Source of the DNA: an uncultured delta proteobacterium
Lineage (GTDB): Bacteria > Myxococcota_A > Polyangia > Haliangiales > Haliangiaceae
Assembly (NCBI GenBank): GCA_963848295.1
Contig: CAWKDB010000010.1
Coordinates: 1,664,001 to 1,728,000, forward strand
Length of the DNA: 64,000 nucleotides
Direction of reading: 5' to 3'
In this document: positions 4,721-21,021 of the stretch, piece after piece
How positions within the stretch are numbered: position 1 is the first letter of the stretch
Layout: each line of letters opens with the position of its first letter
Program-made: the position numbers and the translations under genes
The notes under the pieces: model-generated
What the model was told of the DNA's origin: nothing
The model's database searches: none
Seen by the model: the letters and a program-made list of their open reading frames with translations, nothing else

Positions 4721-5514
4721 CTACGGGCACGAATACATCGCGGCGACGGGGAGATCGATCGGCGTCGGCGTCGGCGTGCCATCGCCGAGCTCGCCGTACG
4801 TGTCATCGCCCCAGCACCGGATCGCGTCGCCGGCCAAGACCACACACGCATGAGCGTTGCCTACGACGAGCGCCGATGCCGTAGACGGCAGCGGCACTTC
4901 GATCGGCGATGGCGACATCGCGGGCGTCAACGCACCGATACCGAGCTCGCCGGTCGTGTTGTCACCCCAGCACCACACGGTGCCGTCGCTCTTGCGCGCA
5001 CACGAGTCTCGATCGCCGAGCCCGATCTCGACCGCGCCGGCAAACGCTACGCCGTCGAGCGCGACGACGACCTCGGTCGGCGTCGGCACCTGCATGGCGC
5101 CGAGGTTGCCGTCGCCGAGCTGCCCGAGCTCGTCGTCGCCGAAACAGAACACGGTTCCGTCGCTCAGCCGGGCGCACGTGTGGATGTCCGACGATGACGA
5201 CTGGACGACATTGGCCAGCGGCACGGCGTCCGGATACGGCTGGTTGTTCGTCGAGCCATCGCCGAGCTGGCCATTCGTATTCGAGCCCCAGCAGCGGAAG
5301 TTATCACCGTGCCGTCGCCGAGCTGCCCGAAGCCGTTCGCGCCCCAAGACCAGATCGTGCCATCGCCGCGCAACACGCACGTATCGGCGCCGCCCGCCGA
5401 GATCTGAGCGATGCACGCGGAGCTCGTCGCATCGCCCGCGTCGATGTGGTGATCGAATCCGGCTCGCCCGCACCCCGCCATCCAGCCCATGCAAAGCAGC
5501 CAACGGCGCACCAT
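4721..5514 (-). pseudogene. RCC1-repeat lipoprotein, frameshifted or internally deleted near 5300-5310
   Basis: Signal peptide and first RCC1 repeat (WSWGANGFGQLGDGTV) are in one frame; later repeats (CWGSNTNGQLGDG, CWGDNTTGELG) are in another. Confidence 0.75.
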
Positions 5515-5560
5515 CCCGACTCTACACGTACGCGGGTCGGAGCCTAGAATTCGGACACGA

Positions 5561-5647
5561 GCTTCAATGGCCCCGTCGACGAACGTCGACGGAACGGGCT
5601 GCGTCTTGTGAGACACGACCGGATGCGAAGCTTCAATGGTGCCGTCG
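5561..5647 (-). CRISPR. Orphan CRISPR-like mini-array: one full ~35-nt repeat, 34-nt spacer, one partial repeat
   Basis: GCTTCAATGGCCCCGTCGACGAACGTCGACGGAAC at 5561-5595 with an 8-bp stem; GCTTCAATGGTGCCGTCG at 5630-5647. On the minus strand both end in ATTGAAGC. Confidence 0.6.
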
Positions 5648-5688
5648 GTGTTCGTTCATCCGCCTCCGCCCATGCGCGCCGGCAGCGC

Positions 5689-8253
5689 ATGTCAGACCTC
5701 CGTGCCAGCGTCGCGGCCGTGGAGACTTCGATCGCGTCGATCCCTTCGCGCCCCTTCGCGGCCACGACCGTGGTCGCCGACGAGGCGTTCGCGGTGCTCG
5801 CCGACCTCGCGTCGAGGCGGCGAGAGACCGAGCCGATCGCGGCGATGCTCGCTGCCCGCGCGCTGCGCGTGACGGCCGGCGCGGACTTCGCGGTCGCGCG
5901 CGATGCGCTCGAGGCGTTGATGAGGCGGGCGGAGTCGGCGCGCGACGTCGAGCTACGGCCGGCGCGCGGCGGGTATCGCGCGGCGCCGAGTGCGGGGCGG
6001 CGCGGCAGCTACGACGTGTGGCTCGCGAGCGATCGCGAGCTCGAGGGCAGTTGTAGCTGTCCTGATTTCGGCAAGGCGTCACTCGGGTTGTGCAAGCACT
6101 TGCTCTCCGCGCTGGCGCTGCCGCGGCGGCGCACGTCGCCGCGCGCGTTGCGCTGGGATCCGGTGCGCCCGCTCACCGGGCCCGGCGATCGGCTGGAACG
6201 GCTGTGGCTGAACGCCGGCGCGCGCGTGTCGCCCGCGATCGCGATGCTGTTCCAGGCCGCGCCGGCGGGGCGGCCGATCGAGCCGGGCGCGGTCTCCGGC
6301 GCCGCGCGGCTCACCACGATCGAAGCGCTGCTCGCGGCGTGCCGTCGCGATCCGCAGCTCGCGGAGCCGGCGATCGCACCGCTGCTCGAGGACGAGCTGG
6401 CGGCGTCGCGTCGGCGGCTCGGTTCGGTCGGGTCGCACAGCCGGCTCGCCGGGCGCGAGCTCGACCGCGCGTTGCGCGGGCTGAAGCGGAAGCTGTTCCC
6501 GTATCAACGCGAAGGCGTCGCGAGGTTCCTCGGGGCCGGCCGACTGCTGCTCGCGGACGACATGGGGCTCGGCAAGACGGCGCAGGCGATCGCGTCCTGC
6601 CACGCGTTGCTCGCGAGCGGCCGGATCGAACGCGCGATGGTGGTCGCCCCGGCGTCGCTCAAGCCGCAGTGGGCGCGCGAGTGGCGCGCGTTCACCGACG
6701 TCGAGTTCGTGACCGTCGAGGGGCCGCCGAACGAGCGCGAGCGGATGTATCGCCGTCGCGGCGGCGGGATCTTGCTCGTCAACTACGAGCAGCTGCTGCG
6801 CGACCTACCGCATGTCCAGGCCTTCGCGCCGGAGCTCGTGATCCTCGACGAGGCGCAGCGGATCAAGAACTGGGAGACGCGCACCGCCGGCGTCGTGAAG
6901 CGGCTGCAACCGGAGTGGCGCTTGGTGTTGACCGGGACGCCGATGGAGAACCGGCTCGACGAGCTGTCGTCGATCATGGAGTGGGTCGACGAGCACGCGC
7001 TCGAACCGCGCTGGCGGCTGTCGAGCTGGCACGCGATCCGCGCCGACGGCTCGAAGGAGATCATCGGTGCGCGCAACCTCGATACGTTGCGCGCGCGGCT
7101 CGCGCCGGCGATGTTGCGTCGCATCCGCGGCGACGTGCTCGCGCAGCTCCCGCCGCGCCGCGACACGCGGATCCCGGTCGCGCTGACCCCGCTGCAGCAA
7201 GACGCGCACGACGAGCTCAACCTACCGATCGCGAGGCTCGCCGGCATCGCGAAGCGAAGGCCGCTGGCCCGGCCGGAGTTCCTGAAGTTGATGACGCTGC
7301 TCGCACAGCAGCGGATGACCTGCAACGCGCTCGCGCTGCGCGACTTCATCGCGACATGGCCGATGTTCGCGCGGAGTCGAAAGCGCACGAGCTCGCTGAT
7401 CGAGGCGCTCGGTAGCCCCAAGCTCGAGGATCTGAGAGAGCGGCTCGTCGAGCTCGTCGTCGACCAGGGCCGCAAGGTCGTGGTGTTCAGCCAGTGGCGG
7501 CGCATGCTCCAGCTCGCCGACTGGACCTGCGGCGACGTGCTGGAGCGCCGCGGCCTGCGCGCCGTGTTCTTCACCGGCCAGGAGTCACCGCGCCGCCGCG
7601 ACGAGAACCTGGTCGCATTTCACGACGACCCGGCGGTGCGCGTGCTGTTCGCGACCGACGCCGGCGGCGTGGGGCTGAACCTCCAGCGCGCGGCGAGCTG
7701 CTGCATCAACCTCGAGCTGCCGTGGAACCCCGCGGTGCTCGAGCAGCGCGTCGGCCGGATCTTCCGGCTCGGCCAGGATCAGCCGGTCGAGGTCTACAAC
7801 TACATCGCATCGGGCGGCATCGAGGAGCGCATCGCGCACTTGGTCGGGGACAAGCGCGCGCTGTTCACCGGGCTGTTCGACGGCACGAGTGACGAGGTGC
7901 CGTTCGACTCGTCGGGATCATTCCTGTCCCGCGTCCACGAGGTCTTGCGTCCCGAGCTCGCCGACGGCGAAGACCCCGACGTCGAGAGGGTCGACGATGC
8001 TAGCGGCGCCGAGCCTGACGAGCTCGAGCCCGAGCCCACACCGCCCACCAACGCCCGTGCGTCGCTCGACCCGGCGGCCATCGCCGAGCTCGCCCGGACG
8101 GCATCGCAGCTCGAAGCGCGAACCACCGGAGACGGCCGGATCGTATTCGAGCTGCCCGCGCCGGCGGCTGGTGCGTTGAGTGGCTTGCTTCGCGCGCTGG
8201 CGGCGGCGCTCGACGCGCCTTCGCCTGCCCCCGGGACTGTTCTAGAGCGTTGA
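5689..8253 (+). CDS. SWIM zinc finger plus SNF2-family helicase/ATPase
   Basis: CSCPDF...CKH (SWIM), LLADDMGLGKT, DEAQ, LTGTPMEN, GGVGLNLQ, QRVGRIFRLGQ. Confidence 0.9.
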   Translation: MSDLRASVAAVETSIASIPSRPFAATTVVADEAFAVLADLASRRRETEPIAAMLAARALRVTAGADFAVARDALEALMRRAESARDVELRPARGGYRAAPSAGRRGSYDVWLASDRELEGSCSCPDFGKASLGLCKHLLSALALPRRRTSPRALRWDPVRPLTGPGDRLERLWLNAGARVSPAIAMLFQAAPAGRPIEPGAVSGAARLTTIEALLAACRRDPQLAEPAIAPLLEDELAASRRRLGSVGSHSRLAGRELDRALRGLKRKLFPYQREGVARFLGAGRLLLADDMGLGKTAQAIASCHALLASGRIERAMVVAPASLKPQWAREWRAFTDVEFVTVEGPPNERERMYRRRGGGILLVNYEQLLRDLPHVQAFAPELVILDEAQRIKNWETRTAGVVKRLQPEWRLVLTGTPMENRLDELSSIMEWVDEHALEPRWRLSSWHAIRADGSKEIIGARNLDTLRARLAPAMLRRIRGDVLAQLPPRRDTRIPVALTPLQQDAHDELNLPIARLAGIAKRRPLARPEFLKLMTLLAQQRMTCNALALRDFIATWPMFARSRKRTSSLIEALGSPKLEDLRERLVELVVDQGRKVVVFSQWRRMLQLADWTCGDVLERRGLRAVFFTGQESPRRRDENLVAFHDDPAVRVLFATDAGGVGLNLQRAASCCINLELPWNPAVLEQRVGRIFRLGQDQPVEVYNYIASGGIEERIAHLVGDKRALFTGLFDGTSDEVPFDSSGSFLSRVHEVLRPELADGEDPDVERVDDASGAEPDELEPEPTPPTNARASLDPAAIAELARTASQLEARTTGDGRIVFELPAPAAGALSGLLRALAAALDAPSPAPGTVLER

Positions 8254-8336: not shown

Positions 8337-8627
8337 ATGAAGCTAGCAGCGGACGATCTCCACGGCGTCGCCGAGACGCTGCTCATCCCGCTCGCGTACC
8401 GCGACGATTCGTTCGCCCGCGCGTTCCGCGACCGCATCGACTACGACTGGCAGAAGTTCGCGGGCGGCGGCTTGCAACGCGTGGGCATCGTCGCGCGCGC
8501 GCGGTTCGTGCGCGAGTACCCGCTGTCCGACGCCTTTCCCGAGATCGTGCCGCCACAGCTGACCGCGGACGAGCTCCGCCGCGCAGCGAAGATCGTCCAG
8601 GCGCGTTTCGTCTCGGCGAACGGCTAG
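8337..8627 (+). pseudogene. Remnant of an LCM-like class I SAM O-methyltransferase
   Basis: ETLLIPLAYR and IDYDWQKF...GIVAR resemble the family N-terminus, but the protein is only 96 aa and has no SAM-binding GxG motif. Confidence 0.5.
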
Positions 8628-19584: not shown

Positions 19585-20100
19585 TCACGCAGCCCGCTGA
19601 AGAGTGGCTCCGTCGATGCGGTAACCGCGTTTCTTCGACCGTGGACGAGGCTGGTCCGCCGTGAATGCAGGTGCAACGCCTTCGATCGGCGGATTTCGTT
19701 CGTGGAGTCGGAAGAATGCATGCGACCGGATCGCGTAGGCATCCGGTCCCTTCACCGCTTCGGCGCCGTTTTCCCAGCGGTTGACCGTCGCGCGCACGAC
19801 GCCCAAGCGATGCGCGAACTCCTCCTGCGTGTCGCCGACCAACTTGCGGAGGTAACGAACCTCCATTGGAGCGAGCTCTTGGAGTTGGAGGAGGTCGACG
19901 GCGAGCAGAATCGCGATCTGATCCAAGAGCCCGCCGTACATGCTGACGTTCCCGCACTTCTGGCAAACGAGTGCGGGCATGTTGTGGACGACCACCTTCT
20001 TCATGTCGAGAAGCGGTCCGACATCGTGGTCGACATGCTTCTGAACAAGGTTGGCCTTGTGACAGACCCCGCAACGGATCTCGCTGGTTTTGGTTCGCAT
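19585..20100 (-). CDS. MqsA/YgiT-type zinc-finger plus XRE HTH antitoxin
   Basis: CGVC...VHNMPALVCQKCG; VRYLRKLVGDTQEEFAHRLGVVRATVNRWENG. Confidence 0.85.
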   Translation of the reverse strand: MRTKTSEIRCGVCHKANLVQKHVDHDVGPLLDMKKVVVHNMPALVCQKCGNVSMYGGLLDQIAILLAVDLLQLQELAPMEVRYLRKLVGDTQEEFAHRLGVVRATVNRWENGAEAVKGPDAYAIRSHAFFRLHERNPPIEGVAPAFTADQPRPRSKKRGYRIDGATLQRAA

Positions 20101-20103
20101 GTC

Positions 20104-20414
20104 CTATCCGTCCATGATCGTGATGAGGATGACCTGCTTGCCGAGATGATCTTTGTAGGCTCGACGCCGACCTTCGCGGTCGTCCCATCGAGCGCGGTTC
20201 CGGTGACTCGCCACGAGGTTCCAGACGCTAGCCGCGGCGCATCGGGGTACGTCGTGCAGGCTGAAGCCGTCGCCACGATCTTCTTGGCATCGAACACGCT
20301 GAAGCTTCGAGCCTTCGCACGTTTCTCGAAATGAGCATCGACGATGTTTCGGCCGCCTAGCATCGCCTCCTGGATCCAGGCGAGGGCCTCGGTAGCGTTT
20401 CTTGGACCAGGCAC
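20104..20414 (-). pseudogene. Putative DUF4258/RelE-like toxin with a 1-nt frameshift near 20160
   Basis: HFEKRAKARSF...WRVTGTALDG. Adding one G gives VGVEAYKDHLGKQVILITIMDG-stop, ending 3 nt before the antitoxin ATG. Confidence 0.65.
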
Positions 20415-20417
20415 CGA

Positions 20418-20436
20418 ATGTAACATAGTGTTACAT
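20418..20436. promoter_or_regulatory. Perfect palindrome, putative antitoxin operator overlapping the TA promoter
   Basis: ATGTAACA-TAG-TGTTACAT; TTGACA on the minus strand at 20449-20454. Confidence 0.7.
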
Positions 20437-20727
20437 GAGACAGCTGGTTGTCAAACCGGTCGAGAGCCCAAGCCGAGCTTGACCGTCCTACGCGTGTGAT
20501 GGCGCGCCTCGGCAGCGTGAACCTTGTGTTGCGCGAGAAACGAGTGGTCGGGCCGTGCGGCGACAAGGACGTTCTCGTCACGTACGCGTGCAGCGCGGGA
20601 GACGCCCTCTCGATCATGATGCGAGACGTCGCCATCGGAAAGAGTGTCCGCGGCTCATCGAGGACGAAGAATTCACGCGCGGGGCTGGTGCCTCGACCTC
20701 TGCGACGCAGACGAAGAACGATGATCG

Positions 20728-20988
20728 TTGCATCGGCATGGCGGTGACCCGTTGGACGCCGACAAGCTGCGCCACGTCCTCCAGGACTTCGACACCCTGT
20801 TCGCGGTGGCCAACCCCACCGAACGCGAGCAGCTTCTGAAGCTCCTCATCAAACGGATCGTGTTCCGCGGCTTCGATGCCGAGGTAACGATGGAGCCTTT
20901 CAGCTCCGTTAACCTTCCCGGTGAAGGTTCGAAATTTCGAGCGTCTTGGCTCCGAAGGAGGGTTTCGAACCCCCGACCCGGCGGTTAA
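20728..20988 (+). pseudogene. C-terminal remnant of a large serine recombinase
   Basis: LQDFDTLFAVANPTEREQLLKLLIKRIVF resembles recombinase C-termini; the frame reads into the tRNA 3' end; no catalytic N-terminus seen. Confidence 0.55.
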
Positions 20989-21021
20989 CAGCCGCCTGCT
21001 CTACCACTGAGCTACTTCGGA
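20947..21021 (-). tRNA. tRNA-Asn (GTT)
   Basis: TCCGAAG-TAGCTCAGTGGTAGAGC-AGGCGGCT-GTT-AACCGCC-GGGTCGGGGGTTCGAAACCCTC-CTTCGGA-GCCA; 75 nt with encoded CCA. Confidence 0.97.

Follow-up and report, generated by a model that had tools for sequence, protein, structure and literature searches.

A one-spacer type I-G CRISPR unit upstream of a SWIM-SNF2 helicase gene, likely an array remnant

The repeat-spacer unit and its neighbours

The window, that is the whole 64,000-nucleotide stretch of DNA that was analysed, carries a single repeat-spacer unit on its minus strand, lying between a broken RCC1-repeat gene and a gene for a SWIM-SNF2 helicase. The features of the locus are:

4721..5514, minus strand: RCC1-repeat gene, downstream of the array in the crRNA sense; a change of frame near 5300 breaks it
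5521..5550, plus strand: weak sigma-70-like match (9/12), antisense to the crRNA direction
5561..5595, minus strand: near-complete type I-G CRISPR repeat, last unit in the crRNA sense
5596..5629, minus strand: single spacer of 34 nt, without a protospacer in the collections searched
5630..5647, minus strand: partial repeat, first unit in the crRNA sense, no leader beyond
5690..5711, plus strand: promoter-like motif of the helicase (TGTCA[GC], 10 bases, NANNNT, with GTG 7 bases on)
5719..8253, plus strand: SWIM-SNF2 helicase, 844 aa when read from the inferred GTG, in a frame that is open from 5608 on

The preliminary description of this DNA had reported a 35-nt unit with an 8-bp stem, a 34-nt spacer and a second partial unit, and all three are present. 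The repeat at 5561-5595 folds on the minus strand, the spacer occupies 5596-5629 and the 18-nt partial repeat (5630-5647), with its handle at 5630, is identical to the first unit at 16 of 18 handle-end bases; the start-to-start distance of the repeats is 69. The full unit forms one hairpin on the minus strand (-18.8 kcal/mol, z -3.44, matched by 1 of 200 shuffles), the core of which grows from 8 bp to 11 pairs when G-U is counted. Both the hairpin and the 8-nt handle are intact, and the repeat differs from the array repeat of G006 and G030, two genomes of the same genus, by two substitutions and one missing base. The partial repeat does not fold (-3.2 kcal/mol, z 0.72); it keeps 17 of the 18 handle-end bases of the cognate array repeat, with weak likeness up to about 5655, and has lost the hairpin. 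The spacer's own hairpin is ordinary, as 30% of 501 array spacers fold equally well, and Rfam gave no match.

Two smaller observations were made here. The degenerate arm of the partial repeat can pair with spacer bases 1-10 (5620-5663, -9.2 kcal/mol) and so enclose the handle, which is either a trace of fold-back synthesis at the break or chance. The minus strand also has a frame of eight codons (5633-5659) overlapping the partial repeat, its ATG preceded at a distance of three bases by a stretch rich in purines; this is probably due to chance.

A 151-nt contig from an independent-looking public run, which may be the source sample, reproduces 5465-5594 with a single difference that falls outside the repeat. 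In run X1, one contig proceeds through the repeat to bases found at 5598-5603 and then from 5669 on, hinting at a deletion variant that lost most of the spacer and the partial repeat (depth 2, 21 far-side bases); another X1 contig holds 5652-5833 unchanged.

The flanks of the unit are ordinary chromosomal genes. No phage, plasmid or integrase families were found among the ORFs scanned over about 54 kb around it, and the GC content is flat. In the RCC1 gene one repeat period measures 56 instead of about 156 bases, with about 100 bases and the frame lost. The S41 peptidase, RCC1 and helicase parts of the region match different contigs of the genus, and none of the relatives searched spans the element. 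Between 5300 and 5950 the plus-strand match at 5521-5550 is the sole promoter-like site, none being found on the crRNA (minus) strand. The helicase gene is followed by a 96-codon ORF (8337-8627) with no Pfam, NCBIfam or PADLOC match; its start resembles the N-termini of class I methyltransferases, and it may be a gene fragment. Further along, at 19588-21021, an MqsA-like antitoxin gene stands by a tRNA-Asn in a stretch of slightly lower GC, and no second copy of the tRNA-Asn end was found.

The helicase gene and its promoter-like motif

The helicase possesses a SWIM finger, an SNF2 ATPase and a Helicase_C domain. It scores under the cut-off of each named NCBIfam family that it matched, and far under those of the RapA, DrmD, DpdE, ZorD and SCO1167 families. 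Its distribution in the genus is patchy, with changing neighbours, and its nearest relatives with named records are in Kofleriaceae bins (60-68% identity), which makes this the likely family of the host. The unit had been placed about 40 bp before the helicase start, which holds for an ATG at 5689 but not for the GTG at 5719 that orthologs favour. The promoter-like motif TGTCA[GC]-N10-NANNNT followed by GTG is present in all 11 of the close orthologs, and similarity among the orthologs begins at this motif, at 5690 in the window, between the repeats and the gene. Since it is kept in 11/11 orthologs, the motif belongs to the helicase and not to the repeats. On sequence grounds the helicase is a self-contained gene with its own promoter-like motif.

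A connection between the unit and the helicase had been put forward as well. Upstream regions were inspected for 86 other helicase loci (81 distinct, 67 of them with at least 300 upstream bases and the N-terminus). The unit is present at none of the 81 distinct homologous loci, where no I-G cas protein match was found either, and is also missing from ten further genus loci, mostly duplicates; the proposed link is not supported by this comparison. Relaxed searching returned 13 "repeat-like" rows in the helicase loci, all lacking the handle and 10 of them being one helicase coding motif, and these were rejected. It is therefore very improbable that the repeats belong to the helicase gene as a cis-acting element, such as a 5′ leader hairpin or control site. 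Mere adjacency speaks for this, as does the weak plus-strand match at 5521-5550, which could read through the repeats into the helicase; against it, besides the ortholog counts, the conserved motif begins downstream of the repeats and no SNF2 match occurs in the annotated neighbourhoods of six other cas-distant units (G024:C608, G249, G027, G176, G100, and G036).

The motif of the helicase has further copies in the host assembly, G000. There TGTCA[GC]-N10 also precedes ORFs whose translations, compared by eye, resemble recJ, a DUF3127 protein, thymidine kinase and an integrase, and a spacing of 10 occurs most often (49, other spacings giving 19-38). Its letters resemble those of PafBC/RecA-NDp promoters. 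The form TGTCA[GC]-N10-[CT]ANNNT stands shortly before the starts of DNA-metabolism-like genes at 5690-5711 and about 16 other G000 sites. WYL-like genes are present in G000, and these sites are a candidate WYL-activator DNA-damage regulon in the family, the concept of actinobacterial WYL-activator (PafBC) DNA-damage promoters being outlined in the available text of PMC8223512 and PMC6789036.

Repeat family, cas genes and truncated arrays in relatives

The window repeat is 33/36 identical to the repeat of true type I-G arrays in G006, and arrays of the cognate repeat are present in the same genus in G006, G030, and metagenome locus L134. A relaxed repeat pattern was detected in 43 of 401 class genomes and in 13 of the 43 other genomes of the genus (taking in G088, which is flagged unpublished and on which no further statement here depends), and the same pattern read backwards in 0/401. 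The 10-mer handle has four copies on both strands of the 7.78 Mb of G000, two of which are the window pair. Because of this rarity of the handle, the match to the genus array repeat and the empty backwards control, the unit is not a product of chance.

In G003, an array of a related repeat follows a full Cas3g-Cas8g-Cas7-Csb2-Cas4/1-Cas2 operon, with a WYL gene between Csb2 and Cas4-Cas1, and its leader stands on the side opposite the handle. From this order and leader side it follows that the crRNA sense of the window unit is the minus strand. In the predicted sense the partial repeat comes first and the full repeat last, the unit pointing away from the helicase. This orientation agrees with type I-G processing as given in the available text of bioRxiv 10.1101/2022.08.08.503147, in which Csb2 binds the hairpin, cuts 4 nt below it and leaves an 8-nt handle. 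With the type I-G arrays described there (Thioalkalivibrio model) the window unit has in common a 35-36-nt repeat, a long hairpin, four bases and an 8-nt handle; it differs from them in having one spacer, a first repeat of 18 bases, no leader and no cas genes found. There is no regular multi-repeat array with a leader at the window site, which has one full and one partial repeat. The assignment to type I-G is upheld by the identity to the genus arrays, by the related repeat beside the Cas3g/Cas8g1/Csb2 genes of G003 and by the hairpin fold. As a side observation, L134 and L190 (G100:C133) are I-G arrays with blocks or single repeats in opposed, facing orientations.

Within G000 (85% complete, with 15% of marker genes missing) the unit is single-copy at up to 8 mismatches, which rules out a dispersed REP-like element, and a spaced-repeat scan returned no array, only tandem or coding repeats; searching the repeat against the rest of the genome thus gave neither a second copy nor a cognate array. 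A family profile search of G000 detected no Cas1, Cas2, Cas3 HD, RAMP, Csb1 or Csb2, with matches in both positive controls (G003 and G024), and tblastn with six I-G proteins found none, with 7 to 18 of 20 control loci matched. The flanks of the unit are without cas remnants. The statement that no cas genes surround it accordingly extends, for the families and proteins searched, to the rest of the assembly, though at 85% completeness these genes are "not found" rather than "absent".

The favoured reading, judged to be somewhat better than an even bet, is that the unit is an inactive trailer-end relic of a type I-G array. A longer array would once have stood at this site (the relatives gave no syntenic locus with a longer array); its leader and cas genes would presumably have gone when a deletion or insertion cut into the last repeat but one, and the helicase, with its own promoter, would have arrived or stayed independently. 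No crRNA would be made, because there is no promoter-like site on the crRNA strand, no Csb2 and no hairpin in the first repeat. Established for this reading are the repeat family and orientation, the missing leader, the lack of cas genes in the assembly and the lack of a helicase link; the broken RCC1 neighbour, the lack of a TTN-flanked seed match within 1 kb and, weakly, the X1 contig that rejoins the window near 5669 also count in its favour.

Comparable truncations are present among the relatives. Arrays that end in a leader-side partial repeat without a leader were identified in G036, G153, G100, G145, G249, and G024:C608, that of G249 sharing the one-spacer form of the window unit, and lone repeats without a leader in G027 and G176. 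The search for the partial-repeat pattern, to which most of these truncated arrays are due, matched 8 of the 138 family genomes; G000 is one of them, and in three the matches are irregular repeats inside arrays. Extended to the class, it added, besides G249, only array-internal cases in G076 and G307. A random break of an array would be expected to fall in a repeat about half the time, giving exactly such a form. No Cas7g match was found in 11 of the 18 family genomes with such repeats, these being incomplete bins (78-95% complete). The decayed array suggested at the outset is thus the best reading, supported by the cognate genus arrays, the recurrent leader-side truncations and the lack of cas genes found. 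Against it, the cas locus could be missing from an 85% complete assembly, and in relatives it is usually the handle end that a trailer repeat has lost, whereas in the window this end is intact.

The orphan one-spacer unit of G249 (G249:C128, L187:5480-5733) has a first repeat of different sequence, with a hairpin kept four bases before the handle. It adjoins a small ORF that resembles, by eye, a nucleotidyltransferase, and no target was found for it.

Spacer targets and the mini-arrays of cas loci

The spacer was searched in several collections. The exact 34-mer was not found in IMG/VR, nor was a 26-nt seed pattern in metagenome contigs; a 19-nt seed pattern gave 21 matches in IMG/VR, none reaching past 23/34, and blastn against phage and plasmid records returned chance-level pieces only. 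The best match in its own genome was 24/34 and there was no likeness to 505 array spacers of relatives. The repeat pattern was likewise not found in IMG/VR. The proposed comparison of the spacer with the genome and phages therefore yielded no protospacer among the viral, metagenome, phage and plasmid sequences searched; for spacers of soil bacteria a missing match is the usual outcome. A stretch 148 bp upstream was rejected as a target, having 8 contiguous spacer bases outside the seed and no TTN PAM, and not being the best of 280 positions.

Positive controls were provided by the relatives. Handles that lie outside perfect repeats were sought in 22 I-G cas loci; of the 46 rows obtained, three have seed runs of at least 13 with a TTN PAM within 1 kb. 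These, with two weaker units, are:

L105:1196-1306 (G003:C128, L105:1073-1306): G003 mini-array, run 18, PAM TTG, 141 bp upstream
L208:14147-14330: G024:C160 mini-array, run 13, PAM TTA, 147 bp
L216:2390-2575: G024:C380 mini-array, run 18, PAM TTC, 144 bp
L217:10252: G465 unit, weaker run 9, 2/300 shuffles as good
L222:6944: G457 unit, weaker run 7, 5/300 shuffles as good

In the three strong matches mismatches fall only at positions 6 or 12, no shuffle of 300 was as good, and the matched DNA is in every case intergenic and upstream of cas3. These G003 and G024 units are candidate CreR/CreA-like mini-arrays, their targets being putative promoters. Two handles in cas loci of G108 have runs at chance level, so that runs of 18, 18, 13, 9, and 7 were obtained for five of seven such handles, those of G024 having been chosen because an earlier unselected scan had shown their targets. 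The TTN PAM used here rests on the positive controls (TTG, TTA, TTC); for a Bifidobacterium I-G system a PAM of TAT/TAC is reported in the available text of PMC9335239.

For the window spacer the best TTN-flanked seed run within 1 kb is 4, equalled by 72 of 300 shuffles, and for five other cas-distant units the runs are 0-3; with any PAM, its best run within 3 kb is 8. Genome-wide, it has two TTN-flanked 13-nt seed matches (shuffle mean 0.12, with 1 of 60 shuffles reaching 2, in a shuffle that ignores codon bias), both inside long ORFs, far away and not extending, and no 13-nt seed with a TAN PAM. These two matches, being more than shuffled seeds give, count against the relic reading. So does the anatomy of the unit, as a handle-only first repeat and a hairpin-bearing second repeat are also found in the G003 regulatory mini-array.

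This anatomy raises the alternative that the unit is a stranded mini-array of the CreR/CreA type, which would once have directed the I-G Cascade to a promoter some 140 bp upstream and so repressed it. The promoter, target and cas operon would have been replaced by the helicase cassette, leaving a unit that is now inactive, as the relic would be, and different in origin. The layout is that of the G003 unit (17-nt first repeat, spacer and hairpin repeat, upstream of cas3), for which, as for the two of G024, a PAM-flanked seed lies 141-147 bp upstream; the helicase cassette starts 60 bp upstream of the handle, over the expected place of the target; and the spacer is short for its repeat family, only 11 of 505 array spacers being of 34 nt or less (mode 37). 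Against this, no trace of a target is present 60-200 bp upstream (best 17/34, no seed, no TTN PAM), the second repeat keeps its handle and departs little from an array repeat whereas in two of the three targeted units no second repeat can be recognised, and the flanks are without a cas remnant. In the available text of bioRxiv 10.1101/2023.03.10.532045, CreR/CreA are likewise two-repeat mini-arrays with a handle-keeping first and a hairpin-keeping second repeat, but the window unit lies outside a cas locus, has no nearby PAM-flanked seed and is not conserved in relatives. The upstream repeat is the better kept one in what is available of bioRxiv 10.1101/2023.03.03.530964, the opposite of the window unit. 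The unit is regulator-like in layout and fails two defining CreR/CreA tests, those of cas context and target, and the stranded regulator is considered unlikely, though a possibility to be taken seriously.

It had also been suggested that the unit is a guide-like RNA using Cas proteins in trans. It would then be a working guide repressing a distant gene or a decoy soaking up Csb2/Cas7, with an I-G Cascade encoded either in sequence missing from the assembly or on an element arriving from outside. In favour of this, the hairpin is undamaged, as are both handles, I-G systems are frequent among the genomes of the genus, two distant TTN-flanked seed matches exist, and the missing marker genes leave room for a cas locus. 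The suggestion was not borne out, however: 7.78 Mb of assembly yielded no cas gene or array, no PAM-flanked seed lies nearby, the crRNA strand is without a promoter-like site and the first repeat offers Csb2 no hairpin and can instead pair with spacer bases 1-10. Neither is the seed enriched in the 22 I-G loci (369 kb; 5 matches against a shuffled mean of 2.5, longest TTN-flanked run 10), and the flanks are chromosomal, of flat GC and free of phage or plasmid genes. A trans-acting guide or decoy is quite improbable. A special form of it, a live and portable I-G guide that has no cas genes of its own, silent until Cascade arrives on a mobile element and with the fold-back as a safety catch, is viewed with strong doubt; if true, it would be loaded to repress a host gene or act as a decoy. 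The Cracr/Racr anti-CRISPR RNAs of phages and plasmids, as far as the available text of bioRxiv 10.1101/2024.10.29.618823 goes, are also cas-less repeat-spacer units outside a CRISPR locus; the window unit differs in being on no recognisable mobile element and in having a spacer unmatched in the 22 I-G cas loci, which are only a sample of possible hosts. Explanations other than the relic, the stranded regulator, the trans guide and the helicase element are given hardly any weight.

The window unit is thus likely a genuine, if ordinary, remnant left by a type I-G CRISPR locus. In the first reading of this DNA the type I-G repeat and the decayed array stood, and the guide in trans and the helicase link did not. 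As a relic the unit matters little, marking the past loss of an I-G system, and mini-array anatomy alone is no proof of a regulatory RNA. In the literature on mini-arrays and CreR with type I-G, as partially checked, no such unit beside an SNF2 helicase was found, and supplements, for example Figure S7 of I-U elements, may list such units.

A by-product of the comparison is a discriminator within this lineage, as I-G cas-locus mini-arrays have long PAM-flanked seeds about 140 bp upstream and orphans do not. The G003 and G024 cas-locus units are better candidates than the window unit for RNA-guided autoregulation in type I-G. They match the creR picture of bioRxiv 10.1101/2023.03.10.532045, and creA-like elements are already mentioned for I-U (= I-G) in the available text of that preprint and of 10.1101/2023.03.03.530964. 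By eye, the stretch preceding the handle and the one following the spacer are mutual inverted repeats in both G024 units, an arrangement that would close the guide into a single large loop.
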